Virus record (IMG/VR): IMGVR_UViG_3300033146_001808
Span: 1-54,617 of that record
Direction: 5' to 3' (one strand)
Source: a virus
Taxonomy: Duplodnaviria; Caudoviricetes
Length of the DNA stretch: 54,617 nucleotides
In this document: positions 5,637 through 46,515 of the stretch, in pieces
Numbering within the stretch: the first letter of the stretch is position 1
Layout of the letters: every line of letters starts with the position of its first letter
The notes under the pieces: model-generated
What the model was told of the DNA's origin: nothing
Seen by the model: only the letters and a program-made list of their open reading frames with translations
Database searches by the model: none
Made by a program: the position numbers and the translations under genes

Positions 5637-5637
5637 T

Positions 5638-25192: not shown

Positions 25193-25203
25193 AATTGATT
25201 ATT

Positions 25204-26604: not shown

Positions 26605-26614
26605 ATATATAGAT

Positions 26615-28684: not shown

Positions 28685-28696
28685 AATATTTATAAG

Positions 28697-31600
28697 ATGA
28701 GTGATGAAATAAAGAATAGCGGTAATACTCCTGATGGAGGAGAAACTAAAAAACAAAAATCACCTGTACATGCTGGACCCCCTCAACAAGAAGGGGATCC
28801 AGATTTTGGGTTTATGGCATTGCAACAAAAAGGTGTTACTTCTGGAGATATGGGAAACTCTTCTTTTGTAGATAAGATTTATCTTGAAGATAGAGATAAG
28901 TTTGTTGGAAAATTAATAGAAGGTGGAGCTGATGAAGAGCAAGCTAATGTATTTTATGATGCAAAGCGTAATGAGTATGAGGGTTTAAAAAATGGATTTT
29001 ACACTAACGATGATGCTACAGACCTTAATGCAATGGAATACGGTCAGACATCAGTAGGAGCGTTTAAGAAGGACTTATACAATTCTTATTCTCAGAATAC
29101 GTCAATGGGTGCAAAAGGTTTTAAAGTAGCTAATTCTTATTCGTATTTAGATAGAAGTATTTTTAAATATAAAGATCAGAAAACTGGTAAGATGATAGAG
29201 AAGCCTTTATCGAGATATGATGCTTCTACAGATCCTAGTTTAGTAATAGATAAGGGTTCTGATGGAATGCCTTTTATTCGTCAATTACAAGCAGGAGAAA
29301 ATCATTATGAATTTGAAACTTATCATACTGGATTCCTTTGGAAAGATGAGCATAATGTTTATGGAGGAAATGCTTTAGAAGATGCTACATTAGGATTCAT
29401 ATCAGGTTTTACAACATTGCCAGGGAGAATAATTGCTGGAGGTGGTGCTGTTATTACAAGTGCTATATTTGGAGAGCCTACTGATAAAGATGGTACATTA
29501 CAAGATGTATATGATTTCTGGGATGATGCTACCAATATGGCTGACAGATTACAATACAGACCTTCTGATGAGGTTATGGAGGGTGGTTTTACAGGAAGCT
29601 TTGGAAGTTTTGCTTATGCTATGGGTAATGGTGTTGGAGAAATGGCAATGCAAATAGTGATGGCGACTGCAACAATGGGAGGTTCTTTAGAAGTTGGATT
29701 AGGTACAGGAGCATTAAGAGCTTTGGCTAAAAGAACTTTGATAAAAGAAGGAATGGAAGTTGGCGCAAAGAAAGCTATTGTTGAAGGATTAAAATATGTA
29801 GGAAAGAAAAATCTTGATGATGTAGGTAAAGCGGCTATTGCTGCAATGGACTCAGCATTAAAGAAAAGTGCTGGAACAGCAGTAGAGCAAGCGTTATCAA
29901 AAGCTGTAATGAATAAATCATTAATTGGTAAGGCTGGTAACTTCATGAATAATTATGGTGTTATAGGAGGCTTACAATCAAGTGGAGCTGTATTTGATGG
30001 AGCAATGCGTAATGGATTAGATAAGCGGTCTGCTGCAGGCTTAGCTATAGGAGCTGGAGCTATTACTTATGCTACAGAGAAAATGTTTTCTTCTGGGTAT
30101 TTAAACAGTATGATGGGAGCTGCAGATTTAGATAAAGCTGCAAGTAAATTTCTTATTAAAGAATTTGGAGCAACATCAAAAGAAGCTTTAGAAACTACTA
30201 TTACTAAAATGGGTAAAACAGCTCTTAAAGGTCCTAATGCAGTAGGTAGAATGACTACTAATTATACTGCAAAGATGATTAAGAAGTTTGCTGATAAAAA
30301 TGGAATAGGATATAAAGCTGCAAAAAAAATTCTTGGTAAAGCAAGAAAGGTACGTGATTTAGGAGATAAAACTATTGGTAAAGTAGCTACAACTATTGAT
30401 AAAATGACTACTGGCATTAATAAAGCAGAGCAAGATTGGGTAAAGAAAAATTATCTTGATGGACGAATGAATGTGCCTAATATTATTAAAGGTATGTTTG
30501 GTGAAGGTACACAAGAGGCTTCTGAAGAAGTTGGTAATATAGGACTTAATTGGGCTCATGATAATTTAAAGATGTCTTTTGGTGGTGGTACTATGGAAGA
30601 GTATCGAAAGAAAAAAGGATATATGGGTTACTTGTCTTTTAGAGATGAGGTTCTATCTTCTGCAACTGCTAATAATATATTTCAGAATTTTATTGGTGGT
30701 TTTGCTATTGGTGGATTTATGGCTGGTGTTAGTAAAACACAAGGTAATGGATATGCTGATGCTGATAATGCATTATTTGATATGGCTGCTCAAAGAGGTG
30801 AGTCAGAAAAATTAATGAAATCATTTTATGGTAAATGGAAAAATACAAATGCTAAAGCTTATGGTTCTACTGATCATGATTTAAGTATGAAAGTATTAAC
30901 TCATACAGATGATAATTCTCCTACAGTTAAAGTTGAAGAGGATTTTAGTTCTTATGGATTAGAGCAAGGCATGGAGCTTAAAACACAAGCTGATGTTAAT
31001 TATTATAATATACTTAAACAAATTAAATATTCTGAAAAGTTATATGAGGAAACTGGATTTACTCCAGGTTATCTTGATAAATTTAAAGGTCAAGAAAGTT
31101 TGTTTGAAAACGGAATGCAAATCTTTAGAGATTTAGATGAACTTAAAAAGAGTGCTGTTAAAACACAAGCTAAACTTAAAGATGAAAAGATCACTCCAGA
31201 ACAAAAGGAACAATTAGAGAAAGAATTGGCTCAATATGGAGAAGCTGAAAAGGTAATGCAAGAACGCTTTGATTATCTTATGAAGCCACAAGCTAATGGT
31301 TTTAGTAAAGCTTATGATGATACTTATAAGAATTCATTAGCATTAATGGAATTAGCCAATGATGAGGCTTTTTCTAATATGAAAGCTAATTATGAAAATG
31401 AAGGTAAGAAGTTTCCTGATAAATTAGGAAAGAAAGAACTTGAAGAGTTTCATAAATTAAGAGATAAATCATTAGGAGAGAATTTACAAAAGAGTTTTTA
31501 TCATGATATGATTAACTCTATTCGTTCTGTTAATGAATTTACTGATTCAAGAATTGAGAGAGCTAAAAAATTACTTGAAGATTCTAATATTAATGATGAA

Positions 31601-34600
31601 CAGAAATCAGAGCTTGATGGCATAATCGAAGATTTTGGAGCTACTTCTAATGACTATAAAAAGTCAATGGCTGATATTGATTCTAATTTAAAAATAGAAG
31701 CAGGAAAACTTAATAGCATGAAAGCAGAAGATGGTCCTTTTGATTCAAGTGCTATTACTGCATTATTAGATAGTCGTGTTAAACAACAGACTAACATGAC
31801 TACTAAATTAACCTCACAACTTTCTTCATTAGGAAAGTTTGCTGGTTTAGCATCATCAAATAAAGAGATTAGTTCTATAATGGATGATTTCACTAATGAA
31901 GCTGAAAACATTTTTTCTTCTATTAGAGATGATAATAAGTTCATGACTAAAGATGTAGTTAATGAAGAATTTGGAATCACTGAAAAAAAATCATTACCAA
32001 TAAAAAACACTTTTGCTAGAGTTGTAGGACTTAATGCACAGGATGAAAATGGTGAGATGGTTAATGTAGGTAATGCTTCAATAGAAGAGTTATCACAACA
32101 ATTAAGGATAAGTGGTACTAATGTAATAGATGTTTTTAATGCAGGTAGAATAGCTTCTGATGAAAATTTTAAAGAAGCAACTCGTATAGCTAAACAATCG
32201 GAGACAGAGGAGGGTCGTATTGCATTATTAAATGAAACTTATGAGTTAGTATATAAAAGTCATCTAGATTCCTTAGAAGCTTCTAAAGAGAATGATTATA
32301 ATGAAAATTTAATTAGTCTTATACAAGAAACAGAAGGAGTATTAAAGGATTTAGAATTAGCTAAGAAATCTTTGCTTGTTCGTAATAGAGTGTTTTATGA
32401 TATGACTCTTGATACTGATAAAGAAATTCATAGAGATCCTAAAGTAGATGTTCCATTAGATGATAAGTCTTATAATGAAATTTTAGAAAAAGTTAATCAA
32501 GCTGAAATTGATATTAAAGGGCATTTAGAAAACATGAAAAATGCTGCAGGAATTAGAGATTCTTATTTCGCTATAGAAAGACATACTACTACTATTCAAA
32601 ATAAGCATTCTTTATCTATCATAGTAGATGATGAATCGTTAAAGGATAAAGAGTGGGCTAAAGATATAGCTGAGAAGCTTGATAAGATTGAATTACCTCA
32701 TGTTGATATGGATGCTTATGGAACTGGATTAAGTAGTGAGGAACAAATTAAAATCGATAAGGCAGAGAAAGAGATAATGGGTTTAATGCAAATTATTCAT
32801 GATAATAGAAACGATATTAAATCGAAAGCTGTATTATCAAGTATATTGAAAAATTCTGTATTAGATGCAAATGCTATTACTAAATTTGGAGAACCTAGTG
32901 GAAAGAATTATTTAAAAGGAGCTGTTATTTTAGGCAAAAGAAAAATCGACATAATGAAACCATTAGTTTCGGAATCTAGTGATGTTAATTCTTTTACTTG
33001 TGTAACTAAAAACCCTTTTATAAATCAATTAAATTATGTTCATTTTGTTAACTTTTTAGTAACGAATTTATCAGATGTAAATCCTAAAGATATAGCTAGT
33101 ATTCGATACACAGTAAATGAAATGTTTTCTGATAATGATAAAATAGCTTTTTCTTCTACAGAACAATTAATGCAAGAAAATGCAGCTTTAGCTTTCCTTA
33201 ATGGAGGGGATGCTATCTTTAATGATATAATGAAGATAGAAGATGAAGCTCATAAAGATGTTGGTGTAGATATTAGACCTAGTTTTAACAATAAGCCCGG
33301 GTTTATGTTTTTAACTGGAGATGCTCAGACTGGTAAATCTGTTCAAATGACTCCTCAAATAGTTTTATTTAACTCTATATTAAATAAAGGTACTGATGGA
33401 GAACAACAAAATTATATGTTTGTAGGACTTAATGAAGAAGTTGTTTCTCATTTTAAAGATGAGATAGAGCAAATACATTTAGTTCAAGAGAAACTTGGTT
33501 TACAAAAAAGTGGAATGCAAGCAATGAAACATAATGATTTAATAACTAATGTTTCAAAAGATGATGTTAAGAATACTGTATTGATTGTTGATGAAGCAAC
33601 TATATTGTCTAATTCAGATATCAATAAGATTGCAAATATAACTGGAGATAGCAGAAAAGTTATGTTTGTGGGAGATGCTACACAAATGCCTGATTTTTTA
33701 AGTACTGATGCTACAGGTTTTTCTGATGCTTCTTCAATAGGTTTCCTAACAGTACCTACACAAAGAAAATTTGCTTCTAAAAATCCTGTATTAACTAATT
33801 TAATGGATTCTATTATTGGTAGTTTGAATGGTAATGGTTATAATAAATTTGCTCCAGCATGGAATGAAATTGATTCTAAGACAGGATTACGTTCTGGTAC
33901 TGAATATAAATCTACTACTGATGATATTTTCAAATCATTTAAAGAAAGAATAGATGCAGCTAAAGATGATATTGATCCTTCAGATGTTGGTTTATTATTT
34001 TTAAGTGAAAAGCATTATGAAGATTATAAGGCTTCTAATCCTGATGTGGAAAATTACGAAAAATATGTAGCTGTATTAGGTCACGATAAGACAGTAAAAG
34101 ATAAGAAATTTGAATCTATTCAAGGAGGTCGTAGGGGAGAAATTTATATAATGTTTGATGGTGATATGAGAAATTTTCAAGCTTACGCTAAGAAGAATAT
34201 TTTATATCCACAAAAATTAGCTAAATCAGCTTTATACACTATGGCTGGTAGAGCTTCTAGTTTTATTTCAATGGTTAGTGACGAATCTAATATAGCAGTT
34301 AAAAGGCCTGCTAATTTTAATTCTGATCCAGAAATACTAGAAGGTATTAAAAACAAAAATGAAATACAGCAGTATCTTAAAGATATAATGAATGCTGAAA
34401 AAGTTAAGGATTTAAAAGAACAAAAGATTAATGATGATGGAGAAGTTGATGATGATAGCGATAGCCCATTAAAAGAGACCGTTGAAAGGCGTGCTGTAAT
34501 AAATAAGATAGATGATATCAGAATTAAAACAAAGGATCTTAAATCTATTGATAAAGCTGATGGTAGTGGAGAAGAAAATTATTATGAAGGGAAGCTTAAT

Positions 34601-37600
34601 GGTAAAACTGTAAAAGTCCTTAGAACAACTTCTGTTGTTTCTAAATATGGAATAGATTTTCAATCTGTTATTGATTTTAATAATGGAAAAGACACATCAA
34701 AACCATCACTAGCTTTTTACAGTAAGCTTGGTCGTTCTGTTGACCTTATATTCAGAACAATAATGGATTCTAATAATAGGAATGTAGAATTTGAAGAAGT
34801 GGTTAAAGTTTTATCTGATGCTGATTTATATACTCATGATTTTGGTGGAAATAAAATTGATTTATATGGAAAGAATCCTGATCAAGTGATTCAAGATATA
34901 ATGAAGTATCTATTGGAAATTAAAACTGAGATAGAAGCTAAAGGCGAGTATCTTATTCCACTTGATACTAAATTAGCAACTACAGATATTGATATTAAAG
35001 ATTTTGATGGTGTTTCTGGAACTCCTGATTTAATGACAGTAGATGAGAAAGGTGTTGTTAGGATTTATGATTTAAAGAATAAGAAAGATGATAATGATTT
35101 ATCTAAAGGTTCTCAATATAATCATGAAGGAGCATCTGATATAATTCATTATACTAATCAAATTAGTGGTTATAAAGAGCTTTTGAAATCAATGGATGAT
35201 GAATTAAATATATCTAATGAAATGGGTTTAATTATTCATAGATATAAAGGTGATCCACCTAATAGTAAATCTAATAATGGAATGCGTAAATCAGTAAAGG
35301 TTGAGATTATACCTCTTACATATAAGCAAACTAATATAGGGCAAGCTATAGAAGATTTTAATAATAGAAAGATTAATAATCAATCGATATTATCATATCC
35401 AGATACGACTTCTATTAATGGTCAAGAAATAACTATTGGAGAAATTTATTCTGATAATAATAATATAGTTAAAGTTGATAAAATAATTGTTGATGAAGAT
35501 GGTAATGTTAGTATTTCAATTAGTGGAAAAGTTTTTGGTGGAGAAGAATTCTTAAATAAATACAGTTTATTTACACCTACTCACTCTCCAGTTATAGTAA
35601 GTAGTCACAAAGGTAAATCAATAACAGGAGAGCCTGCCGCGGTGTATTCTGCGAGCATATTTGCTGAACATAACGGAGCTTTATATTCAACTCCTGTTTC
35701 AATAGTTGTTGGAAAATCTGATTTCATTAAATTTAATGGACTTAAAATCTATGACTCTAAAAACAAAACAGAAAGTAAGGCTTTATCTATTGATGCTATT
35801 AAAGAAAAGATAATAAAAATCAAAGAAAAACTTGCTAATAGTGATGCTAAAAGAAAACTCGTTTATAAAGAAACTCAAAAATCTGCTGATAATAAAAATG
35901 ATTATAAGGGAGTGTTTGTGACAGAAGTTGAAGGAGATCTTAGTGATTATTTAGCTTCTAATTTAGAAAGAGCTGATACTGATTTTATAGATTCAATGAT
36001 AAAAATTGATAGAGACTTGACTAATGAAATCTTTACTCATATATCTACATTTGGATTACCAAATAGTTTTGATAAAAAACAAAATAAATGGGTTTCGTTT
36101 GATCCATTTCTAATGACAGACAAAGAGTTTAATGATTCTCTAACTGCTATTAAAGAAAGTGTTGATAATAGCGTTACAAGTGAGGATTTAGACAATTTAA
36201 TAGCTTATAACTTCGAGTTATGGAATATGCACAAGGTAGCTAGAGCAAGTAAAGCTAATGCTGTTAATGGAAGAATTGATTTCGGTACAATTAAATTAGC
36301 AACTAATTTAGATAGTCATATTATACAAAGGAAAGGCAACAGGCTTATTTCTATGAAAGAGTTTTCTGAAAATATTGATGATACTGATTTTAGTGTTGAT
36401 AGTAATACTCAATTAGAATTTAAGAAAGTGACCGGAACAGATGATGAACATGTTTTAGTATTAGAATTATTTAAGAATGGTGCTCCTTCTGGAGAGAGTA
36501 TTAGTGTTGTTACACCATTTGTTGGAGGAAAAAATCAAAGATTTAAAAGATTACTTGTTGATGAACTTGAAATGTATGAGAATGGAGATAATGAATCACA
36601 CCCATTTAAAACTTTTGCTCATAATTTAGTTTTAAATAATAGAACTAATTTTAAGGAACTTATTAAAAATGACAAGACAGCTCCTAAAGAGTTTAAGAAC
36701 ATCATATTTGATGATGAGAATAACAAGGTTGTTTATCATGGTAATGTAGCTTCTAAATTAAGAGAAGAAACAGAGAATAATACACTTATTGCTTTAATTA
36801 AATATTTGAAAGAAGATAAAGTAATTAGCAAGATGTATGTTCCTAAAAATTATGTTAATATTGATGATTTAAAAACAAACATTGTCGGTATTAATGCTAT
36901 TCCTTCTTATGTTAAGCCTACAAATTCTGAATTTATTCATGCTGATATTAAATCTACAATAGAAAGTTTAGATAATCCTAAGCCTCCTGTTAATAGTGGT
37001 AGCCAGAATGGAAGTAGAAGCGGTGGTCGAAGAAGTGCTATTAATAGATTTGGTAAGATAGAATCACAAACGGAAGCTGAGGCTAGAGTTGTAGTTTCTA
37101 AAATACTTGGTGAAGAATATGCTGATAAATGGTTAGGCTTTGAGAGAAGTTTGAAGTATGATGAAGTTGAAGTATTTGGATTAATGGCTAATGGTCGTAT
37201 AAAATTAAGTATTAATAAAGGTAAAGTTAATAAACTTACTGCAAGACATGAGATGTTTCACGTTGTTGATGATTATATTCTTAATGATAATACTAAAAAA
37301 CTTATTTATCAAGAAGTAAGAGATAATGTTCCAGCTTTAAAAAATTCATCTATAGATGATATTAAAGAGTTCTTGGCAGATTGGTATTCTGTACATGGAC
37401 AAGCTCAACAAGAGGGCTTAATTGATTCTGAATACATAGAGAAGTATGGTGCTTTATTAAATATGATTCAAGATAATTATAATATTTTTTCTGGAAAGAT
37501 CGCTCAATTATTTAATGACATTGAAGAAGGTAAATTCCAAAAGCCTGTTTCTGATTTATTAGGTAATGCTATTATTGATAATAATAATATTAGATTAAGT

Positions 37601-40600
37601 AAAAAAGGAACTCATAAAAAGAAAAGGCGAGAATGGAAGAATAATAAAAATCATAATCAGAACACTAATACAATAGGTAGTCAATTGTCTGATGAAGATA
37701 TTGCTAAATTAAAAGAGCGTCAAGAACGTAAAGTTAGAATAGAAGACCAAGTTAAGGTTCAAACTAGAGTTGAATTAGAAGAAGATGCCAAGGTTGTTTT
37801 GGATAGATTGTTTGGTAAAAACGCTAGATTATTACAAAAAGCAACGCAAGAAGTAATTGCTATATTTGGTTCTGAAACTAATCTTAATGGTAAAGATAGG
37901 ACCATTAATGATTTAATTCAAAATTTAACTAATGATACATTAGGTGTTGGATTTAATTCTAGATTTATTTTTAATGAATCATATAATAGAGAAATAGTTT
38001 TAGATAAAATTAATGATGCTGGTGAGAATATAGTTAAGCATACTTTAGATATTAAGAGTAGTGATTTCCCATTTATTAAGGATGATGATGATTTTGCTGC
38101 AGTATTAGTAATGCAAATATCTAATAGTATTCCATTAGCAAATGCTTTTTTACAAAGGGTTTTTCCTCATTATAATATGAAATCTAAAACGATAGCTGGA
38201 TTTACATCTTTACAATACACGAATAAAGAATCGGTACCAGGATCAGCAGTTCAAGATATGGCGAATTTTGCTTATGCTAATATTCCATTTGTAAATAGAG
38301 ATGAGAATGGGCCTTATTTATCAATTACTAATTTACCAGCTACGGAAGCTAAGAATATTCTTAGAGAGGCAGCAAAGATTGCAAGTGGTTTTTCTAATTC
38401 CAATACTACTTATTTCGAGGACATAGAAGAAGCGTTATATTCAATGAAACCTAATGATGGTTCTGCTAAAGATATTGCTTTAGATAGCATCTTACGTAAG
38501 CTTGTTGTGGGTTATGATAATTTAAGAGGTAATTCAGGTAATTTGAATACTTGGTTAGGTTCTTATAATGAAGTTTTAAATACAGATAATTTTGGAGAGA
38601 TAAAGCCAAGCCAACATGAATTTAATGCTTTAGCTGATGCTATGTTTTCTGATTTAGTAAGTTATGTTGATAGTCCTAAGATTAGAGCTAAATTTACTGA
38701 TAATGGAGAACATTATATTATGCTTGATAATTCTACTGCTTCAAACGATAAGCATATTTTAAAGGACAATATCGCTTCTAATCTTTATGCTAATGATAGT
38801 TTAAAAGAAGTTGTTATAAATACTACATCTAAAGAATCAGCATTAAATTCTGATAAGTTGAAATATAGATTTGAAACTGATGGCCTTTATCAAGAACAAA
38901 CTTTATTATTGAATGATATAGGTAATGGATATAGTTTTGCTAAAGTTGATAGTGGTGTTATAAGAACTCTTACTAAAATTGTTGGTCTTTCTAATTTAAG
39001 AACAGATGTATTTGAGAGATTAGCAAATAATAATGGAAAAGTGTCTAAAGTTAAAGGCTTTAAAAATGATGGTATTTCTATTGATCCTAATATGACTATT
39101 AGTGAATTGATAGCTACAACTTTTGGTAACTTTTATGAGGTTGTTCAATTGCAATCAAGAGTAGAGAGAGAATTATTGGCTTTTGCTGATGAGCAAACTA
39201 AAAATAATGAAGAACTTAGTGCTATACTAGCTGATTCAGATCCTTCAAAATTACCTACTCATCAATTAGCTCAATATGAGGCTTATTATGATGGTCGTAA
39301 TGAAATAATTAAAAATGTTTATGAATCGACATCTTCTAATCTTAAAGAATTTAATTCATCTATAAATCTTAAAGTTGGTAATCAGAATATAGATACAGTA
39401 GCTCAAATTGTTGATATTAATAATGGTGTTAATCCAAATGAAGCTAGATATCCTAAGATTACAGATTACTTTAATCATATAGATATGCTTGCTAAATTAA
39501 ATAATAATGATTTAGTAGCTTATTCTTCAAGAACTCAATATATAGCTAATAAAGCTTTTTATTCTTTAACAAAAAGTAATAGAATAGAAGCTGTATCTAT
39601 TAATGATACTAACACTATGGCTGGTATTGATAAAGTAGGTAAGCATGAGCTTGTAAATACTCATAGGTCTAAGATATTAAATAAGAAGTATAATGCTCTT
39701 AAAAAAGCTGAGAGAGTTAAATCATCAGTCTTTAATGAGAATGGTACAACGAATATCCCTTTTATTAGTACTAATAAGGATAAAGCTTTATTTGGATTTG
39801 AAGGAGTAGTACTTGTTCCTGGTATTGAGAATGAATATACTGCTGTTGATAGTATGAATCCTCATGATTACATGCAATTGACAATGGGTTTATTCTTAAA
39901 CAAATTGAATGATACTGGTGGTAAAGATATTTATTTACCATTAGGTCACTCTTCAAGAACTTATTTTGCTAAATCTAAATTTCATAAAGCTGATTCTCCT
40001 TTTACTGTAAAGATTGAAGGAGATAAGTTAGTAGATTTTCAAATTGATAAAAATAAGTTTGTTCCTATTCTTAAAAAGAATTTTAATTATAGTAATAAAT
40101 TAGCAGAGAATTCTAGGAATAGATGGAGGGAATATTTAAAAGATAGTCCTGTATTTGATAAGGAAGTTAATGATTTAATAAATAGTGATATTCCTGTTTC
40201 TTCTAGTAAGTATGATATTCTTAAAAAGAAATCTAGAATTATAACCACATTGGGCGAAAGTCATAGTGAGAATGAGCTTTTAGATATGCCAGGGATGAAA
40301 CGTATTCGTAATTCTGGATTAATAGAAAATAGTGATTATTATATAGCTAGTAAAACAAATGAAGATACTGGAGCTATTAGTTATTTCTTAGAATTTGGTA
40401 ATGAAATTAATTTCGAGACTTTTAAAAGTAATAAAGATGTTGAGGAAAGAGATGGCATTAATGAGAATAGTTTAATCTATACTAGATCTAATTATAGATT
40501 ATTATTTAAAAATAGAAATGGTAGAGTATCTGAAGAGACATTTGATTTAATTATGCAAGAAGAAATGAAGCATAATAAAGAATTAAGTAATCTATTAGAT

Positions 40601-43600
40601 AAAGATTCTTATGGTATTGATGACTTTTATAAAAACTGGTTAAAGAAAAATCATCCTAATTCTTCTCAAACAAGTAAGCTTAGTGCTAAGACAGTTAAGA
40701 AAGATAAAGATGGTAAAGTTGTAAGTACTAAATATCATTATAATCCAGTATATCAAGGATTAGCTTTAGCGAATTCAATTTTAATGCCATCAATTCATAG
40801 ATCTATTGCAGGAAATGAAACTGGATTTAAACATTTTGGAGATTTCACTAAGAGGTATGATCCTAATAAGACTCCTACAAGTGGAATTATGAAAACTAAA
40901 GATGGCCTTGGTAGTAAGTTTAATGTAATTATAATGAATGATACTACATTAGGAGTAATACAATATAATATGAGTGGTACTGTTGATAAAAATGATGGTG
41001 GTGCAATTATGTTTGTAGGTTTTGAACAATTAATGCGTAAATCTTATGGAGGAAAGTATTCTTCATTTGATAAAACTGCTTATAAGCCTCTTATTACTGG
41101 AGGAGATGCTATGACAGGTATTAATACACAAATGAAATTTAGTGCTGATGCTTATTCTCCAAGTATATTAAAAAATAATGAAAAATTAAGAGAACAACAA
41201 GAACAGTTATTCGAACAATGGATTAAAGCTTTTGAAAAAGAAATTGATTCTGATCGATTACAAGGTAAAGTTAAGGAATTATATAATGATTTAAAGACTC
41301 GATATCCTAATGATATTCATACTCGTTCTGAACGATTTATTGAAACTTTTACCAATAAAAAAAGAAGACATCTTAGATTTGGAGGTGAAGATTTGACTAC
41401 AACTCAAATTAGAGATATTAATGGATTATTAGATTTAATGAGAGAGAGTGTTATTATGGGTGCTGTACCTACTACTTCTGTTAAAACAGGAGCTTATAAT
41501 ATTACTGCTCATAAATTTGGCAAAGAAAGAGGTGAGGATTTTAATAACATTAAACCTATAGTAGTAGATTCTGATAGATTTGGATTAGTTAATAACTATG
41601 ATCAAGATGTTAGTGAAAATGCTACTGTAGCGGCTCCTAATCAAGCTTTGTCTCATATAGGTGTTGGTAATCCAGAAATCGCATTAGCTGTTAATCAGGC
41701 TATGTCTGGCTTATTGAATGAAGGTATCAATGATTTATATAATGAAATAGGTGTTGATAGAAATCCTAAAAATTGGAAATCTTCTGATATCGATAAATTC
41801 AAAAACTGGATTAGAAAAATTGGATTAGAAAATGCGGAAGCTAATCAAGGAGGTGCTGGTATTGTTGAAATCCTTTCTACTAATGGTAGCCTTGAAACAT
41901 TACAAATAGCACGTAAATTAGAGCAATATTTTGTTTCTAATCTTAATAAACATGTTCAACCAAGGTTTAAAGGTACTCGTTTAATTCAAGGAGATGGTTC
42001 TGAATTTACTATGTATGACGAAAAAGATGCTAATGGGAATGTTATTGGAACATTAACAGAGCAAGATTTAGAAAAACATCTAAAGAAAAACCCTGATTTA
42101 ATTTATGAAAAAAGATTAACTGACCCATTTGCTTTCATGCAACATGATGCAGATGGTAATTTTACACCAGCAGAAGTAGGTACGCAATTTTTATATGCTA
42201 AAACATTTGGTATTAAAGAGGGGGAACAACCTAGAGATGGTTATATATTAACTATGCATAATGGAGCAATGCTCGATTATCATAGCGTTACTTCTAAAGG
42301 CGATAATATAGAAGCTAATGTAAAAGATGGGTTTCAAGTTGGAATGAAAATTAAAATTAGTGATACTCCATTTTTAAGAGTATCGGATTTAGTGAAAGAA
42401 GGTTTTGGAGTTGATGATGGTTATGTTATTTTAACTGATGATAATATTGATGATTATGCAGAAGATTTTGCTGCTTATTTAGAGAATTATCATGAATCAT
42501 TAGAAATTGCATTAACTCGTGTACCTTATGATACAGTTGCTCTTGGTTTTGTTGCTCGTATTACTCAATTCACTTGGGGTAATGGTAGTACTATATATAT
42601 CAATCCTAAAGACAACTTACGTACTGGTGGTGACTTCGATATTGACCAATTAAGTTCTTATCATAATGAGTATGAGCATTACAGTATTAAACCTAAATTT
42701 AATAATAAAGTAGAAACTTCTCAAAGTGCTGCTCATAAGAATACTGTTGTAGATTCTATTAAGAATTATTATAAAAATCCAGAGAATGTAGGTGCTATTT
42801 ATCAAAGTACTGGTGTTGAAGATATCAGACAAGGCATTAAAAAAGGTAAAAAAATGTTTTATGAAAAATATCATAAGAAGCCTAAAAGTGCTGATAATTT
42901 AAGAATACATTCTATAGGTGGAGTTATAGGAATGGAAGAACTAGCTAATGAAGGAGCCAGTGCTGTTTCTATATTTGCTTTGTCGGCATCTTCATTTGGA
43001 GTAATTAATCAATTAGGAGATGTGGACTATATTAGTGATAGTTTCATTAATATGAATAAAGATGAAATGCTATTTAAATCTCAACTTATTGGTGGATTTT
43101 TACAAGCTTCTCTTGATAATAAGAAAGAACTTATTCTTGGAGAATTTAATGTTCCTGCTTCTGCTGATGGGTTATTATTAGGTTTAGCAACAATGGGGCA
43201 TGATTATGATGAGATATATACTATAGTTAATTCTTATGCAGCACAAGAAATGTTTAAGCAATTAAGAGATGCTACTAAGCTTGGTCAAAAGACTAAGAGT
43301 ATCCCTGAATTAATAGTTGAACTTTCTAATTATGTTAATTCTGTTAATCCAGAGAGTATTAAAGATATTGATAGATTTATGAGTGATTCTATTAATGGTC
43401 TTAAAATACCTGATGCTTATAAAAACAGTAAGCAACCAATAGAGGATGCTTATGATGTATTAAGTAATGAGAATTCTACTGTTGAAGAAAAAAGTAAAGC
43501 GGCTGATGCGTTAAGTCGTGTAGCTAGATCTATTTTTGGTCAAAAAATTAAAAATACTAAAAAGCTTGCTGCTTTAAATAAGAAGAAAGAATTGTTAAAT

Positions 43601-45922
43601 ACAGATGATTCTGAAGCTGTAGAGAAATTGCAAGATGAAATAAATACGGTTCAAGATTCTATTGATATTCTAGCTAAATATAGTGGAATAGTAAAAGTTG
43701 TCGAGAACTATAAAGACAATAAAGAAGTTGTTGAATTATTACGTAAAGCTCATATTAATTCAGAAGTATTAAGAAGGCTTGGTAAAATAATGAAACTTCG
43801 TGGAGGTATTGATTCTGATCATAATGATTCATTAATGAGAACTAAAGATATTGAATTATCATTAGGAATGAAAATTGATGAATTTTTAAGTAGAGAAATT
43901 TCTGATGAAGATGGTTCAGAGATTACTACTATAGATACAGAGGATTCACATATCGACTTCTTTATTAATAATAGTAATGCTTTTATTAAATCAACTGCTG
44001 ATAGTAAAGAAGGTCTTATAGAATTAGAAAAAGATATTTTCAATGCTGCTAATATTTCTGAGATACTTAATAATAATGATTATTTATTTGAATTACTTAG
44101 CGCGGCAAATAATAGAATTGAAGCTGTAGAGAATGTTTTCTTTATAAATAAGCCAATGAATAATATGGTTGATTTATTAAGTGGAGCTCAATTAAGGGCT
44201 TCTCTTGAATACAAGGAACAATACAAAGCCAAAGATGGTTTCATGCAAGAAGTGTTGTTAGATTTCTTCTTTAAGCAGAATAATAATGGAGTAGACAATA
44301 TTTCACTTAATGTTCCTAATTTAGATATTGATGGTAATTATGTAGCTACTGATTTTGCTAATTACACTAATCTTGATATGGGTAATGCTACTCATAGGAG
44401 TAAATTCAAAAAACATTTCCCTGCTGTAGTAATGGGAATGGTAGAAGCTGTAGAAAATAATCCTGAACAGATTAAAAAGTACATGGATGCTATTGGTATT
44501 AATGTATCATTACAGGAAGCTAGAAATATTAAGAAGAGTAAATTCTTTGCTTTATTAGAGCGTAATGGTAATGATGGTTTTAAAAAGCTTAGTGTTAATC
44601 CTAGTGTTAATTATGATGAAGCGGCTACTGCAGAAGCACATCAAGAGTTTGCTAAATTACCAGATAATGTTAAATTTTTATTCGAAATGTATCATGTATT
44701 AGAATCTAAGATGGTATATAAGGATAAAGGATTTAGTAATATTGTAAGTAATGATTTATCTATTAAGATGGAAAAGGTTTTTAAAGATAAACATGATAAT
44801 CTTAATGCTATGTTTGATAGATATAATTCAAATGATTCTAATGACCCTCATACTATTGATGCTGTTCATTATTTAGGTGTTAATGCTAAGATTAGAAGAT
44901 TTGCTAGCAAGAAGAGAGGTGATTATCCTAAGTTTGTTACAGAGAATATTAGTAACAGTAGATACAATAAGATAAATAAACCTTTTATTGATACTGGAAT
45001 TAAAAATAGTGATGGTACTCGTAAAAATTTAAGTCATAATGTATCTCATTATATGGGAATTTATGATACTAGTACTACTATGAATACTGTAAAAGGGATT
45101 CAGATTGTAAAAATTGATGAAGCAAATGATATTAAGCTTGATATTATTAGAAACAAAAAAGATAGAGAGCATAATGATCATATCGTTATCAAGACAGTAA
45201 ATCCTCATCATTATAAAGCTGGTGTTTATTTAGATGATAGTGGTAGAGCAGTAGTTGTAAAACCACAAGGAATATTTGCTATTACAGTAACTCCTGCAAT
45301 ATTAACTGATGAACTTACTACTGAATTTGAATATCTTAAAAATGCTGAAAATCTTAAAGTATCAATTGATCTAGAGCTTAAGCCTTTTAATTATGGAAGA
45401 TCTAGTGATAAGGGATTAATAGTAGAAGACTTTATCCAGAGTGATAGGAATACAATGTATATACCATTTGAAAGGTATAATCATTTTAAAAATTCTAATA
45501 GCTTTGGAGTGATGCACAATGCTAAAGATGGTGTTACAAAGGATGATGAAGAAGCTGATAAAGCTTTACGTCCAGAGTTTTCTTATAAAGATGATAATGA
45601 TGAATTTTATCATATTAAGTTAACATTATTTGCCAATAAATCTTTTGATAATTTAAAAGCAGAAGTAGATGAAATTAATAATGTTGAAGATTTAATTACT
45701 TATTCAGGTCTTGATATAGAAACAGAAGATGGAGTTCCTGTATTTGGCAAAAATAAAAATCAATCTTATATTAAAACTTATACTGATTCTGATAGAAAGT
45801 ATTTAGAACCTAAGCGTTGGACCTTTGTAAAGGTTGAAAAGATCAAAAAAATAGGTAAAAAGGAATCTGTAGGAAATATCATTGTTAAGAAAGTTATAGA
45901 GAATAACTTATCTAATTGTTAA
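28697..45922 (+). CDS. Giant virion polyprotein: membrane-interacting region + SF1 helicase + PD-(D/E)xK nuclease + zincin peptidase + DNA-dependent RNA polymerase
   Basis: 5741 aa. Walker A GDAQTGKS (aa 1541), LIVDEA, VGDATQ, SIQG, LYTMAGRA; nuclease GTPDL..IYDLK..QISGY (aa ~2110-2160); HEMFH (aa 2851); RNAP NDGG, TRVP, GGDFDID (aa 4646). Confidence 0.9.
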   Translation: MSDEIKNSGNTPDGGETKKQKSPVHAGPPQQEGDPDFGFMALQQKGVTSGDMGNSSFVDKIYLEDRDKFVGKLIEGGADEEQANVFYDAKRNEYEGLKNGFYTNDDATDLNAMEYGQTSVGAFKKDLYNSYSQNTSMGAKGFKVANSYSYLDRSIFKYKDQKTGKMIEKPLSRYDASTDPSLVIDKGSDGMPFIRQLQAGENHYEFETYHTGFLWKDEHNVYGGNALEDATLGFISGFTTLPGRIIAGGGAVITSAIFGEPTDKDGTLQDVYDFWDDATNMADRLQYRPSDEVMEGGFTGSFGSFAYAMGNGVGEMAMQIVMATATMGGSLEVGLGTGALRALAKRTLIKEGMEVGAKKAIVEGLKYVGKKNLDDVGKAAIAAMDSALKKSAGTAVEQALSKAVMNKSLIGKAGNFMNNYGVIGGLQSSGAVFDGAMRNGLDKRSAAGLAIGAGAITYATEKMFSSGYLNSMMGAADLDKAASKFLIKEFGATSKEALETTITKMGKTALKGPNAVGRMTTNYTAKMIKKFADKNGIGYKAAKKILGKARKVRDLGDKTIGKVATTIDKMTTGINKAEQDWVKKNYLDGRMNVPNIIKGMFGEGTQEASEEVGNIGLNWAHDNLKMSFGGGTMEEYRKKKGYMGYLSFRDEVLSSATANNIFQNFIGGFAIGGFMAGVSKTQGNGYADADNALFDMAAQRGESEKLMKSFYGKWKNTNAKAYGSTDHDLSMKVLTHTDDNSPTVKVEEDFSSYGLEQGMELKTQADVNYYNILKQIKYSEKLYEETGFTPGYLDKFKGQESLFENGMQIFRDLDELKKSAVKTQAKLKDEKITPEQKEQLEKELAQYGEAEKVMQERFDYLMKPQANGFSKAYDDTYKNSLALMELANDEAFSNMKANYENEGKKFPDKLGKKELEEFHKLRDKSLGENLQKSFYHDMINSIRSVNEFTDSRIERAKKLLEDSNINDEQKSELDGIIEDFGATSNDYKKSMADIDSNLKIEAGKLNSMKAEDGPFDSSAITALLDSRVKQQTNMTTKLTSQLSSLGKFAGLASSNKEISSIMDDFTNEAENIFSSIRDDNKFMTKDVVNEEFGITEKKSLPIKNTFARVVGLNAQDENGEMVNVGNASIEELSQQLRISGTNVIDVFNAGRIASDENFKEATRIAKQSETEEGRIALLNETYELVYKSHLDSLEASKENDYNENLISLIQETEGVLKDLELAKKSLLVRNRVFYDMTLDTDKEIHRDPKVDVPLDDKSYNEILEKVNQAEIDIKGHLENMKNAAGIRDSYFAIERHTTTIQNKHSLSIIVDDESLKDKEWAKDIAEKLDKIELPHVDMDAYGTGLSSEEQIKIDKAEKEIMGLMQIIHDNRNDIKSKAVLSSILKNSVLDANAITKFGEPSGKNYLKGAVILGKRKIDIMKPLVSESSDVNSFTCVTKNPFINQLNYVHFVNFLVTNLSDVNPKDIASIRYTVNEMFSDNDKIAFSSTEQLMQENAALAFLNGGDAIFNDIMKIEDEAHKDVGVDIRPSFNNKPGFMFLTGDAQTGKSVQMTPQIVLFNSILNKGTDGEQQNYMFVGLNEEVVSHFKDEIEQIHLVQEKLGLQKSGMQAMKHNDLITNVSKDDVKNTVLIVDEATILSNSDINKIANITGDSRKVMFVGDATQMPDFLSTDATGFSDASSIGFLTVPTQRKFASKNPVLTNLMDSIIGSLNGNGYNKFAPAWNEIDSKTGLRSGTEYKSTTDDIFKSFKERIDAAKDDIDPSDVGLLFLSEKHYEDYKASNPDVENYEKYVAVLGHDKTVKDKKFESIQGGRRGEIYIMFDGDMRNFQAYAKKNILYPQKLAKSALYTMAGRASSFISMVSDESNIAVKRPANFNSDPEILEGIKNKNEIQQYLKDIMNAEKVKDLKEQKINDDGEVDDDSDSPLKETVERRAVINKIDDIRIKTKDLKSIDKADGSGEENYYEGKLNGKTVKVLRTTSVVSKYGIDFQSVIDFNNGKDTSKPSLAFYSKLGRSVDLIFRTIMDSNNRNVEFEEVVKVLSDADLYTHDFGGNKIDLYGKNPDQVIQDIMKYLLEIKTEIEAKGEYLIPLDTKLATTDIDIKDFDGVSGTPDLMTVDEKGVVRIYDLKNKKDDNDLSKGSQYNHEGASDIIHYTNQISGYKELLKSMDDELNISNEMGLIIHRYKGDPPNSKSNNGMRKSVKVEIIPLTYKQTNIGQAIEDFNNRKINNQSILSYPDTTSINGQEITIGEIYSDNNNIVKVDKIIVDEDGNVSISISGKVFGGEEFLNKYSLFTPTHSPVIVSSHKGKSITGEPAAVYSASIFAEHNGALYSTPVSIVVGKSDFIKFNGLKIYDSKNKTESKALSIDAIKEKIIKIKEKLANSDAKRKLVYKETQKSADNKNDYKGVFVTEVEGDLSDYLASNLERADTDFIDSMIKIDRDLTNEIFTHISTFGLPNSFDKKQNKWVSFDPFLMTDKEFNDSLTAIKESVDNSVTSEDLDNLIAYNFELWNMHKVARASKANAVNGRIDFGTIKLATNLDSHIIQRKGNRLISMKEFSENIDDTDFSVDSNTQLEFKKVTGTDDEHVLVLELFKNGAPSGESISVVTPFVGGKNQRFKRLLVDELEMYENGDNESHPFKTFAHNLVLNNRTNFKELIKNDKTAPKEFKNIIFDDENNKVVYHGNVASKLREETENNTLIALIKYLKEDKVISKMYVPKNYVNIDDLKTNIVGINAIPSYVKPTNSEFIHADIKSTIESLDNPKPPVNSGSQNGSRSGGRRSAINRFGKIESQTEAEARVVVSKILGEEYADKWLGFERSLKYDEVEVFGLMANGRIKLSINKGKVNKLTARHEMFHVVDDYILNDNTKKLIYQEVRDNVPALKNSSIDDIKEFLADWYSVHGQAQQEGLIDSEYIEKYGALLNMIQDNYNIFSGKIAQLFNDIEEGKFQKPVSDLLGNAIIDNNNIRLSKKGTHKKKRREWKNNKNHNQNTNTIGSQLSDEDIAKLKERQERKVRIEDQVKVQTRVELEEDAKVVLDRLFGKNARLLQKATQEVIAIFGSETNLNGKDRTINDLIQNLTNDTLGVGFNSRFIFNESYNREIVLDKINDAGENIVKHTLDIKSSDFPFIKDDDDFAAVLVMQISNSIPLANAFLQRVFPHYNMKSKTIAGFTSLQYTNKESVPGSAVQDMANFAYANIPFVNRDENGPYLSITNLPATEAKNILREAAKIASGFSNSNTTYFEDIEEALYSMKPNDGSAKDIALDSILRKLVVGYDNLRGNSGNLNTWLGSYNEVLNTDNFGEIKPSQHEFNALADAMFSDLVSYVDSPKIRAKFTDNGEHYIMLDNSTASNDKHILKDNIASNLYANDSLKEVVINTTSKESALNSDKLKYRFETDGLYQEQTLLLNDIGNGYSFAKVDSGVIRTLTKIVGLSNLRTDVFERLANNNGKVSKVKGFKNDGISIDPNMTISELIATTFGNFYEVVQLQSRVERELLAFADEQTKNNEELSAILADSDPSKLPTHQLAQYEAYYDGRNEIIKNVYESTSSNLKEFNSSINLKVGNQNIDTVAQIVDINNGVNPNEARYPKITDYFNHIDMLAKLNNNDLVAYSSRTQYIANKAFYSLTKSNRIEAVSINDTNTMAGIDKVGKHELVNTHRSKILNKKYNALKKAERVKSSVFNENGTTNIPFISTNKDKALFGFEGVVLVPGIENEYTAVDSMNPHDYMQLTMGLFLNKLNDTGGKDIYLPLGHSSRTYFAKSKFHKADSPFTVKIEGDKLVDFQIDKNKFVPILKKNFNYSNKLAENSRNRWREYLKDSPVFDKEVNDLINSDIPVSSSKYDILKKKSRIITTLGESHSENELLDMPGMKRIRNSGLIENSDYYIASKTNEDTGAISYFLEFGNEINFETFKSNKDVEERDGINENSLIYTRSNYRLLFKNRNGRVSEETFDLIMQEEMKHNKELSNLLDKDSYGIDDFYKNWLKKNHPNSSQTSKLSAKTVKKDKDGKVVSTKYHYNPVYQGLALANSILMPSIHRSIAGNETGFKHFGDFTKRYDPNKTPTSGIMKTKDGLGSKFNVIIMNDTTLGVIQYNMSGTVDKNDGGAIMFVGFEQLMRKSYGGKYSSFDKTAYKPLITGGDAMTGINTQMKFSADAYSPSILKNNEKLREQQEQLFEQWIKAFEKEIDSDRLQGKVKELYNDLKTRYPNDIHTRSERFIETFTNKKRRHLRFGGEDLTTTQIRDINGLLDLMRESVIMGAVPTTSVKTGAYNITAHKFGKERGEDFNNIKPIVVDSDRFGLVNNYDQDVSENATVAAPNQALSHIGVGNPEIALAVNQAMSGLLNEGINDLYNEIGVDRNPKNWKSSDIDKFKNWIRKIGLENAEANQGGAGIVEILSTNGSLETLQIARKLEQYFVSNLNKHVQPRFKGTRLIQGDGSEFTMYDEKDANGNVIGTLTEQDLEKHLKKNPDLIYEKRLTDPFAFMQHDADGNFTPAEVGTQFLYAKTFGIKEGEQPRDGYILTMHNGAMLDYHSVTSKGDNIEANVKDGFQVGMKIKISDTPFLRVSDLVKEGFGVDDGYVILTDDNIDDYAEDFAAYLENYHESLEIALTRVPYDTVALGFVARITQFTWGNGSTIYINPKDNLRTGGDFDIDQLSSYHNEYEHYSIKPKFNNKVETSQSAAHKNTVVDSIKNYYKNPENVGAIYQSTGVEDIRQGIKKGKKMFYEKYHKKPKSADNLRIHSIGGVIGMEELANEGASAVSIFALSASSFGVINQLGDVDYISDSFINMNKDEMLFKSQLIGGFLQASLDNKKELILGEFNVPASADGLLLGLATMGHDYDEIYTIVNSYAAQEMFKQLRDATKLGQKTKSIPELIVELSNYVNSVNPESIKDIDRFMSDSINGLKIPDAYKNSKQPIEDAYDVLSNENSTVEEKSKAADALSRVARSIFGQKIKNTKKLAALNKKKELLNTDDSEAVEKLQDEINTVQDSIDILAKYSGIVKVVENYKDNKEVVELLRKAHINSEVLRRLGKIMKLRGGIDSDHNDSLMRTKDIELSLGMKIDEFLSREISDEDGSEITTIDTEDSHIDFFINNSNAFIKSTADSKEGLIELEKDIFNAANISEILNNNDYLFELLSAANNRIEAVENVFFINKPMNNMVDLLSGAQLRASLEYKEQYKAKDGFMQEVLLDFFFKQNNNGVDNISLNVPNLDIDGNYVATDFANYTNLDMGNATHRSKFKKHFPAVVMGMVEAVENNPEQIKKYMDAIGINVSLQEARNIKKSKFFALLERNGNDGFKKLSVNPSVNYDEAATAEAHQEFAKLPDNVKFLFEMYHVLESKMVYKDKGFSNIVSNDLSIKMEKVFKDKHDNLNAMFDRYNSNDSNDPHTIDAVHYLGVNAKIRRFASKKRGDYPKFVTENISNSRYNKINKPFIDTGIKNSDGTRKNLSHNVSHYMGIYDTSTTMNTVKGIQIVKIDEANDIKLDIIRNKKDREHNDHIVIKTVNPHHYKAGVYLDDSGRAVVVKPQGIFAITVTPAILTDELTTEFEYLKNAENLKVSIDLELKPFNYGRSSDKGLIVEDFIQSDRNTMYIPFERYNHFKNSNSFGVMHNAKDGVTKDDEEADKALRPEFSYKDDNDEFYHIKLTLFANKSFDNLKAEVDEINNVEDLITYSGLDIETEDGVPVFGKNKNQSYIKTYTDSDRKYLEPKRWTFVKVEKIKKIGKKESVGNIIVKKVIENNLSNC

Positions 45923-45927
45923 AATAG

Positions 45928-45935
45928 TATCTTTG
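45928..45935 (+). promoter_or_regulatory. Candidate Bacteroidota -7 promoter element (TATCTTTG)
   Basis: Exact TAnnTTTG match in the 17-bp gap, 4 nt before ATG 45940; no -33 element seen. Confidence 0.35.
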
Positions 45936-45939
45936 TGTT

Positions 45940-46515
45940 ATGGCTATATGTGTAAATTATAAACAACCAGAAGTGAGGGCAGCGTTAGAAGATGCTGTTC
46001 TCACTCTTGTTGAGCATGCTCCCTTAGAAATGGTAGAGCGTATTTCAAAAAACGTTATTGAGAAGAATAATGGTAATCATTTGAGTTTAAATCCAAATGG
46101 AAAGCCTTCAGAAGTTTTTGCTCAATTAATGAAAATGTATTCTAAAGCAGAAGCTTATGCTTATCGTTCTGCTATGTATAATGATTCATTCATTAATAAA
46201 ACTAATTGGGTAGAAACAGGTGTAGAGCCTAAAATAAAGCAAGTGTTAGGGAATAAGCATGTAAATAGAAATGGTAATCAATCCTTAATGTATAAAGATG
46301 GTGATATATCATCTATAGAGCTTGATAAAGGCATTTTAGCCAAGGAAGATGATGATATGAAGAAATGTATCGGAATGGCAAAGAATGGTGCTAGAAGCAA
46401 GGTTAAGCGTGGAGGTATGTGGAGTGTTCAGAAAGATTTAAAAGGTATGCCTAGTCATAAAGAAGGAGGTGTTCAGTTATCATTTAGTAATGGAGTAGTA
46501 ATTAATTCAAAATAA
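45940..46515 (+). CDS. Small cargo-module protein with PNGxxS motif
   Basis: 191 aa; LNPNGKPSEVF shared with the N-terminus of 48551..53356; C-terminal GMPSHKEGGV. Confidence 0.7.
   Translation: MAICVNYKQPEVRAALEDAVLTLVEHAPLEMVERISKNVIEKNNGNHLSLNPNGKPSEVFAQLMKMYSKAEAYAYRSAMYNDSFINKTNWVETGVEPKIKQVLGNKHVNRNGNQSLMYKDGDISSIELDKGILAKEDDDMKKCIGMAKNGARSKVKRGGMWSVQKDLKGMPSHKEGGVQLSFSNGVVINSK

Follow-up and report, generated by a model that had tools for sequence, protein, structure and literature searches.

The locus

In a linear, 54.6-kb virus record of IMG/VR (IMGVR_UViG_3300033146_001808; "the window" below means this whole stretch of 54,617 nucleotides) we analysed an open reading frame (ORF) of 5,741 codons that is free of stops under translation table 11. 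The protein that it encodes, which we call the giant, carries in one chain the motifs of a predicted helicase (GDAQTGKS at residue 1541, DEAT at 1632), a nuclease (GTPDL...DLK, 2108-2127), a zincin-like metallopeptidase (HEMFH, 2851) and an RNA polymerase (RNAP; DFDID, 4646), in this order. We think it probable that a distant crAss-like phage packages the giant in its virion and ejects it as a "polyvalent" protein, in which two of the three cargo proteins of the transcription block are fused by a peptide bond. Judged by motifs and profiles, its first ~3,000 residues would be the RNAP-associated protein (the type of crAss001 gp47, phi14:2 gp67 and the N-terminal part of cr4_1 gp26), consisting of an N-terminal module, the nuclease and the zincin, with a putative superfamily 1 (SF1) helicase as an extra part that separates the N-terminal module from the nuclease. 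By modelled fold and profile comparison, the C-terminal ~2,300 residues are a two-barrel virion RNAP of the phi14:2 gp66 and crAss001 gp50 type. A separate downstream gene, whose product is 1,601 amino acids (aa) long, appears to encode the third cargo protein (gp65/gp49 type). The features are listed in Table 1.

Table 1. Predicted features of the giant gene and of the genes downstream of it (positions in the window; aa, residues of the giant).
Feature	Position	Strand	aa	Remarks
Whole ORF	28697..45922	+		5,741 aa; two Cys (residue 1435 and last residue)
N-terminal module	28697..31396	+	1-900	kept in giants; Gly/Ala-rich segments 230-338, 652-679
SF1-type (RecD/TraI-like) helicase P-loop module	33134..34336	+	~1480-1880	Pfam and motifs
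PD-(D/E)xK nuclease, RecB/Cas4 type	34502..35191	+	~1936-2165	D2111, D2125-x-K2127, Q2155-xxx-Y2159
Zincin-like metallopeptidase module	37058..37546	+	~2788-2950	R2850-HEMFH-V2857, E2891
crAss-type two-barrel RNAP module	38981..45289	+	~3429-5531	BLASTP against P0003, fold, profile
Catalytic DFDID	42632-42646	+	4646-4650	
C-terminal Cys codon	45917..45919	+	last residue	candidate partner: Cys 3 of the 1,601-aa protein (48557-48559)
673-aa ORF	46520..48541	+		between the giant and the 1,601-aa gene; sub-threshold CHAP match
Downstream cargo gene	48551..53356	+		1,601 aa; gp65/gp49-like; sole Cys is residue 3 (MKC...); HELGH 257

The reading frame and its homologues

A first-pass annotation of this DNA, made from the letters alone, had reported one uninterrupted 17.2-kb ORF, and we can confirm it. 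A Logan contig of 24,359 nt from run X1 spans positions 28001-46313 of the window with 232 substitutions and no gaps. That is, a second, slightly different strain has been independently assembled to an equal uninterrupted length of the frame. Note that the listed differing positions of this contig are 40 of 231, and that freedom from stops is not established from these 40. Of the sampled words of one 10-kb piece, 74-75% are present in two public runs from a single study, and no RNA run is among the public runs listed as containing it. We discarded 14 "joints" in the contig comparison as chance matches because their sides are only 20-24 letters long.

Long relatives exist in metagenomic data. 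An exhaustive HMMER search with aa 3801-5000 against 1.84 billion representatives gave 28 proteins at E <= 0.001, 13 of them at least 4,300 aa long (the giant itself is included in both counts). Several of the metagenomic proteins, 4,800-6,100 aa long, are collinear with the giant: P0004 (6,117 aa) aligns with residues 30-5521 in BLASTP, and P0002, P0005, P0006 and P0008 also align in order. Homologues of 5,822, 6,117 and 5,472 aa show 23-29% BLASTP identity, and the RNAP region 29-35% by phmmer. Given the independent contig and the collinear homologues, a chimera or a chance frame can in practice be excluded.

Other searches returned little. A near-length homologue search with aa 4100-5000 found the giant alone among 950 scored candidates; tblastn with three pieces of the giant against 50,697 phage records and phmmer with both halves against the PDB gave nothing; and the PHROGs search gave at most a weak PhoH-like match. 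Related loci in IMG/VR were retrieved solely with an alignment query, single proteins giving none.

The RNA polymerase module

The earlier claim of ordered motifs for four enzymes stands, since all of them occur in the stated order and each is conserved among the homologues. For the RNAP, the identity rests on a fold match and on a profile comparison with negative controls. The R..P and DxDxD motifs are invariant in 25/25 aligned sequences. A 25-sequence profile of aa 4000-5100 aligns with residues 853-1664 of phi14:2 gp66 (hhalign 97.9%, E 3.5e-13, 649 columns), and the DFDID of the giant falls on the DFDID of gp66 (1361-1365); the negative controls, gp65 and gp67, reach 0.1%. The same profile matches crAss001 gp50 (96.6%), the DAC15 RNAP (94.9%), FpV4 gp32 (79.5%) and crAss002 gp33 (70.6%).

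The AlphaFold2 model of aa 4000-5100 has a mean predicted local distance difference test score (pLDDT) of 76.1 and a predicted template modelling score of 0.76. A structural search had been proposed as a check on the annotation, and in Foldseek the sole match at E <= 0.001 was 6vr4_A, the phi14:2 virion RNAP (E 3e-13). VIA-align superimposed 659 residues on 6vr4_A with Z 16.7 and a root-mean-square deviation of 4.5, followed by QDE-1 (Z 15.1-15.7), plant RDR2 (13.3), small phage two-barrel RNAPs (9.4-10.7) and multisubunit enzymes (~9). The relatives of gp66 are ranked alike in a passage of the Drobysheva preprint. Sequence and profile searches of the region against the PDB gave no match, and the similarity to gp66 is not visible to HMMER: neither a 6-sequence profile nor phmmer matched phi14:2 gp65, gp66 or gp67.

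The nuclease and zincin modules

The RecB/Cas4-type PD-(D/E)xK family is defined by the motifs D, (D/E)xK and QxxxY in this order. In the giant the corresponding residues (D2111, D2125, K2127, Q2155, Y2159) are invariant in 4/4 sequences that carry the module, which is deleted in P0006 and P0008. The nuclease profile aligns with crAss001 gp47 1593-1850 (hhalign 96.7%, E 3.4e-10), the catalytic residues falling on VD...DVK...QLSAY, and with DAC15 protein A 1870-2054 (93.1%). Pfam PDDEXK_1 matched one of the four alignment members (E 3.9e-4) and not the giant's own sequence.

For the zincin, R2850, H2851, E2852, H2855, V2857 and E2891 are invariant in 12/12 aligned giants, E2891 being in place as the downstream Glu that serves zincins as third ligand. 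Its profile aligns with crAss001 gp47 2081-2293 (HEAFH at 2157; hhalign 95.1%, twelve controls at most 1.1%), with cr4_1 gp26 1930-2091 (93.0%) and with cr56_1 gp39 (90.8%); the zincin status of crAss001 gp47 and cr4_1 gp26 is by annotation. No curated profile or solved structure in Pfam, NCBIfam or the PDB matched the zincin module, a profile search of the nuclease and zincin region against the PDB gave nothing, and the ESM Atlas gave no usable match for the middle part of the giant.

The helicase module

The candidate helicase has a Walker A motif (1541-1548), DEAT (1632-1635), GD..Q (1659-1663), and SIQGGRR and YTMAGRA, which resemble motifs V/VI of a second RecA-like domain. Pfam assigns AAA_30 (27.6 bits, cut-off 27) and AAA_19 (25.8 bits, cut-off 25.1) to the giant, and the same families to P0008 (29.5 and 28.0 bits). 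The motifs Walker A, DEA followed by S or T (DES in one), GD..Q, SIQG.R and Y...GRA are kept in 6/6 collinear giants. Similarity to RecD2, TraI and RecD in NCBIfam is weak and far below the cut-offs, and the helicase region alone has no match in the PDB by sequence.

The order of the modules is also kept. A regular expression finds a P-loop upstream of the zincin in 10 of 12 other giant relatives, and alignment adds P0008, which makes 11/12; the expression missed the RNAP motif of P0008, which the alignment recovers. In all 11 P-loop-bearing giants the RNAP comes after the zincin, the exception among the twelve being P0009. The IMG/VR loci L008, L009 and L010 have a P-loop and then the RNAP; in the first two of them the zincin comes after the polymerase. 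The ORFs of these two (L008 1-17776, L009 1-18568) have minimum lengths of 5,925 and 6,189 aa, are open at the 5' end of the locus (which is not the contig end) and are longer than the gene in the window; the single chain consists of P-loop, RNAP (GGDYDID) and zincin.

Nine described phages were examined with hhalign, using shallow profiles and single-sequence targets, and their cargo proteins gave no match to the helicase; they include phi14:2, crAss001, crAss002, LMMB, FpV4, DAC15, cr4_1 and cr56_1. The in-chain SF1 helicase is thus the part that we did not find in described phages, although published domain drawings could already show a helicase or nuclease there.

The N-terminal module

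BLASTP relates the N-terminal module to P0002, P0004 and P0005 over aa ~40-860, and hhalign aligns aa 181-861 with cr4_1 gp26 164-837 (90.6%, E 1.3e-6); the match to crAss002 gp32 93-501 is weak (22%). The ESM Atlas gave clusters of viral hypothetical proteins alone, with LPD22 (12%) and LPD14 (66%) as leads.

A hydrophobic membrane region had been proposed here, and this claim survives in part. Moderately hydrophobic, Gly/Ala-rich segments are present (230-259, 313-338, 660-679), as are uncharged runs (296-314, 413-433, 652-679). On the other hand, the Kyte-Doolittle maxima of the segments are 1.04-1.29 and the highest 19-residue mean in aa 1-900 is 1.29, so that by this scale (no dedicated transmembrane predictor was used) aa 1-900 hold no clear transmembrane helix. 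A comparable cluster of moderately hydrophobic stretches lies near the N-terminus of phi14:2 gp67, and a membrane role of the region is possible. The first-pass idea of a chain that crosses the envelope and pulls in the genome is likewise an inference.

Genome context and neighbouring genes

All 24 ORFs of at least 150 aa lie on the + strand, and the G+C content is even across the window (0.28-0.35). GC skew is positive over the whole window (1-54617), with the cumulative skew climbing steadily; the fragment holds the late, structural and cargo half of the genome alone. Upstream of the giant gene we find members of the PHROG families of the terminase large subunit (TerL), portal, major head protein and tail fibre. 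The best phage matches of TerL are crAss-like phages and Flavobacterium and Cellulophaga phages, at 24-26% identity. The gene order is that of phi14:2, that is, TerL, portal, major capsid protein, tail genes and then the giant proteins. On gene content and order, the window phage is a distant crAss-like phage, in agreement with the crAss-like context that the first-pass annotation had suggested.

Just upstream of the giant gene (24143-28684) there are three successive ORFs of 349, 469 and 689 aa with no cysteine and no family match. They may encode further ejected proteins, in the position of crAss001 gp45 and gp46.

Between the giant gene and the 1,601-aa gene there are two small ORFs. The product of one of them, 673 aa long, matches Pfam CHAP (peptidoglycan hydrolase) below the cut-off (E 4.7e-4; 21 bits, cut-off 26) over residues 277-384, and its cysteines 274 and 279 lie close to where this match begins. 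An ejected hydrolase acting on the cell wall, encoded between two large cargo genes, is one possibility for this ORF. In phmmer the 1,601-aa protein is weakly similar to L012 orf2 over the stretch with the HExxH motif, and it has a weak Pfam HEAT-repeat match below the cut-off. Its layout is that of phi14:2 gp65, with Cys 3 in both and HELGH at 257 in one and HEIMH at 245 in the other; gp65, crAss001 gp49 and FpV4 gp33 are related to one another. The second zincin-like motif of the locus hence lies outside the giant, in this protein. Two ORFs that flank the cargo genes (45940-46515 and 53378-53974) encode a cysteine at residue 4 (MAIC... and MSIC...). The product of the latter has 11 cysteines in 198 aa and ends in ...ECKSCN, whereas its neighbours are cysteine-poor.

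Terminal cysteines of the cargo proteins

The ORFs between 24143 and 53356 encode only 7 cysteines in 9,713 aa (0.072%), compared with 0.736% in the other ORFs of the window. The few cysteines of such cargo proteins have a characteristic place (Table 2). At 15/15 junctions from 11 genomes, a cysteine lies within the last 1-9 residues of the upstream protein and another at residues 3-6 of the next; this count includes crAss002 with a moved start. In crAss002 gp33 (L007 11088-23825) residues 33-35 read MSC, like the Met-x-Cys starts elsewhere. Because of this match to the starts in other phages, the annotated start of gp33 is probably 32 codons too far upstream. Fully fused chains are without cysteine: L008 (at least 5,925 aa), L009 (at least 6,189 aa), P0022 and P0027. 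Among the 28 library matches, 13 have a cysteine within the last four residues.

Table 2. Terminal cysteines of cargo proteins (A, gp67/gp47 type; B, RNAP; C, gp65/gp49 type; negative numbers count from the C-terminus).
Phage or locus	A	B	C
phi14:2	gp67: sole Cys is last residue	gp66: Cys 3 and second-last	gp65: Cys 3
crAss001	gp47: Cys -3	gp50: Cys 5 and -9	gp49: Cys 5
DAC15	Cys -3	Cys 5 and last	Cys 4
LMMB	Cys -2	Cys 3	
crAss002	Cys -2	MSC at 33-35 of annotated start	
FpV4	fused with B	Cys -2	Cys 3
cr4_1	fused with B	Cys -4	Cys 3
cr56_1	fused with B	Cys -4	Cys 6
L011	Cys last	Cys 3 and -2	Cys 3
L012		Cys last	Cys 3

The pairing suggests a head-to-tail disulfide linkage that could be replaced by a peptide bond. 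We put forward a wider model tentatively, and would not call it probable: the cargo would be strung head to tail for ordered ejection, by disulfides or by peptide bonds; here the first link would have become a peptide bond, and the SF1 helicase built into the chain would supply the RNAP, which prefers single-stranded DNA, with its template on the entering duplex; and release would come about through reduction in the cytoplasm or, for fused links, cleavage by a zincin. Disulfides are reported in the crAss001 tail (PMC10172136). We found no mention of cysteines or disulfides of cargo proteins in a full-text literature search or in the examined passages of the crAss001 and N4-like-phage papers, and the pattern is possibly new.

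How the giant may work, and alternative readings

Presence in the virion and ejection are suggested by the position of the gene and by the roughly 10-fold cysteine depletion, a feature reported for ejected proteins of N4-like phages (PMC11445570). In crAss001, gp47 has been found in virions by mass spectrometry (Bayfield 2023, PMC10172136), and gp47, gp49 and gp50 are virion cargo that must partly unfold to exit through the tail (PMC10172136). By analogy with phi14:2, crAss001 and N4, the chain would be packed in the capsid, extruded partly unfolded ahead of the DNA and refolded in the cell, where it would transcribe the early genes. In phi14:2 it is gp66 that transcribes these genes; in vitro the enzyme uses single-stranded or denatured DNA, but double-stranded DNA hardly or not at all (Drobysheva preprint). 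Given this preference, the in-chain helicase would most plausibly open or translocate the entering duplex for the polymerase. The nuclease might act on DNA ends or on host DNA, and the zincin in the maturation or release of modules.

Several points weigh against this account. Packaging, ejection and processing are deduced for an uncultured phage, known from its sequence alone. About 40% of the chain (aa 900-1480, 2166-2760, 3000-3400 and 5550-5741) is without assignment. The hhalign targets are single sequences and the query profiles are shallow (6-25 sequences). The AlphaFold2 model of aa 1801-3000 is poor (pLDDT 33), and for this reason the nuclease and zincin rest on motifs and profile comparison; the model was built from an alignment with cut homologues, since MAFFT put about 200 residues at the start of the query in the wrong place when the homologues were full-length. 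The Pfam scores of the helicase are marginal, and as it has no match in the cargo of the described phages examined, its proposed role is without experimental precedent.

Potentially, the giant could be a true polyprotein, cut before or during packaging by its own zincin or by that of the 1,601-aa protein into a helicase/nuclease, a protease and an RNAP, with no single-chain machine in the particle. The Drobysheva preprint calls fused forms "likely cleaved into individual components", embedded zincins have been proposed to process polyvalent proteins (Iyer et al. 2017, PMC5512222), and there are two HExxH domains at the locus. However, no cleavage site is known, and the paired terminal cysteines, present at all 15 junctions in genomes with separate proteins, suggest that linkage may be wanted until delivery, in which case cutting before ejection would defeat it. 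We regard cleavage of this kind as a serious but rather unlikely possibility.

An alternative that we would also rate as doubtful is that the helicase and nuclease are no helper of transcription but a counter-defence or host-takeover module that rides on the RNAP for delivery; its target would be the DNA of the host or of competitors, to be unwound or broken down, or its task the protection of the entering genome ends. An SF1B helicase with a RecB-type nuclease is the make-up of end-processing machines such as RecBCD and AddAB. Furthermore, crAss001 gp47 and DAC15 have the nuclease without the helicase, so that the two are separable, and polyvalent proteins are described as joining unrelated activities against host systems (PMC5512222). 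Against this, no defence-related family was detected, and the order helicase, zincin, RNAP is kept in 11/12 other giants, although collinearity alone does not fix a role.

It is very unlikely that the giant is a structural ruler (a tape-measure-like protein) carrying an RNAP, as in the Thermus phage P23-45. The P23-45 tape measure protein has 5,002 residues and an N-terminal two-barrel RNAP, and P23-45 gp96 is among our fold matches (Z 9.5); but the RNAP of the giant is C-terminal, its nearest fold and profile relatives are crAss enzymes, and the gene order fits podovirus-like crAss phages. Least credible of all is an artefact (chimeric assembly, several genes read through as one, or AT-rich DNA that happens to lack stops in this frame): the window is a metagenomic fragment with a CheckV completeness of ~64%, and the public runs were examined as contigs, not as raw reads, but the gapless second contig, the collinear homologues and the catalytic motifs kept along the whole chain speak against it, and the chimeric assembly that the first-pass annotation had named as its own refutation is not supported.

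If the giant is indeed an ejected fusion of cargo proteins, a helicase and nuclease in the polymerase chain would point to a concrete, testable answer to how the template is opened in crAss-like phages. This bears on the start of infection in these phages, that is, on an RNAP that prefers single-stranded DNA, on the roles of its two large companion proteins and on the order of protein ejection. The terminal-cysteine pattern is open to test in the cultured phi14:2, crAss001, DAC15 and FpV4. Two leads can be put to the test: transcription in which the virion RNAP is assisted by a helicase, and cargo chains linked by cysteines.

Comparison with known systems

The nearest relatives of the RNAP, phi14:2 gp66 (PDB 6VR4) and crAss001 gp50, share with it the two-barrel fold, the DFDID residue for residue, a gene located behind those of the structural proteins and a C-terminal cysteine. 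However, gp66 is a separate protein of 2,180 aa, whereas here the RNAP makes up the C-terminal part of a 5,741-aa chain. Likewise, crAss001 gp47 has a nuclease and a zincin homologous to those of the giant, and DAC15 protein A a homologous nuclease, but these two and phi14:2 gp67 are separate, Cys-ended proteins in which no P-loop helicase was detected. The earlier suggestion that this chain unites functions which other phages distribute over several genes is supported. By hhalign no segment of the giant is similar to phi14:2 gp67 or gp65, and its N-terminal, linker, helicase, middle and C-terminal segments reach at most 22% against phi14:2, crAss001, LMMB, crAss002 and FpV4.

Polyvalent proteins with a zincin hub, described by Iyer et al. 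2017 (PMC5512222) as delivered proteins of phages and conjugative elements, provide the general frame: a large delivered chain of unrelated enzymes, with an RNAP that starts transcription. Their helicases are mainly of superfamily 2 and occur with methylases, UvrD-like SF1 helicases being described only for actinomycete plasmids (PMC5512222). The N4 virion RNAP also carries a zincin, but is T7-like, whereas that of the giant is of the two-barrel type.

Fused forms are already in print and in GenBank/RefSeq, and the suggestion of a novel architecture was therefore overstated. According to the Drobysheva preprint, some phages have the three proteins joined in "a single huge polyprotein"; for the zincin it considers activation of the RNAP or digestion of peptidoglycan. 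A Crassvirales review gives the RNAP gene as "up to ~6000 aa". In GenBank/RefSeq we find crAss002 gp33 (4,245 aa), FpV4 gp32 (4,287 aa), cr4_1 gp26 (4,491 aa) and cr56_1 gp39 (4,461 aa), and the LMMB records contain a 4,070-aa "RNAP catalytic subunit/RNAP subunit fusion protein" and a 1,957-aa "RNAP associated protein/zincin protease fusion protein".

Of these, the giant RNAP-bearing virion structural protein of the cultured Flavobacterium phage FpV4 (gp32) is followed, as here, by a second large protein (gp33, 1,596 aa); the sole cysteine of gp32 is its second-last residue, and gp33 begins with MAC. In contrast to the giant, gp32 has its zincin motif after the RNAP (HEVIH 4065) and no helicase or nuclease match, and phmmer finds no similarity between the two. 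The Suoliviridae proteins cr4_1 gp26 and cr56_1 gp39 resemble the giant in having, in this order, the N-terminal module, the zincin, the RNAP and the C-terminal cysteine, and the gene that follows (1,568-1,803 aa; 1,803 in cr4_1) has a product with a cysteine at residue 3-6, as in the window. Both phages read TAG as sense, with 38 in-frame stops per giant gene under table 11, which fits the stop-codon reassignment already described for that crAss-like group. These fusions are ~1,250 aa shorter than the giant, and no helicase or nuclease was detected in them by hhalign. Size and fusion as such are thus already known; what sets the giant apart from these described forms is its greater length and the predicted SF1 helicase within the chain.

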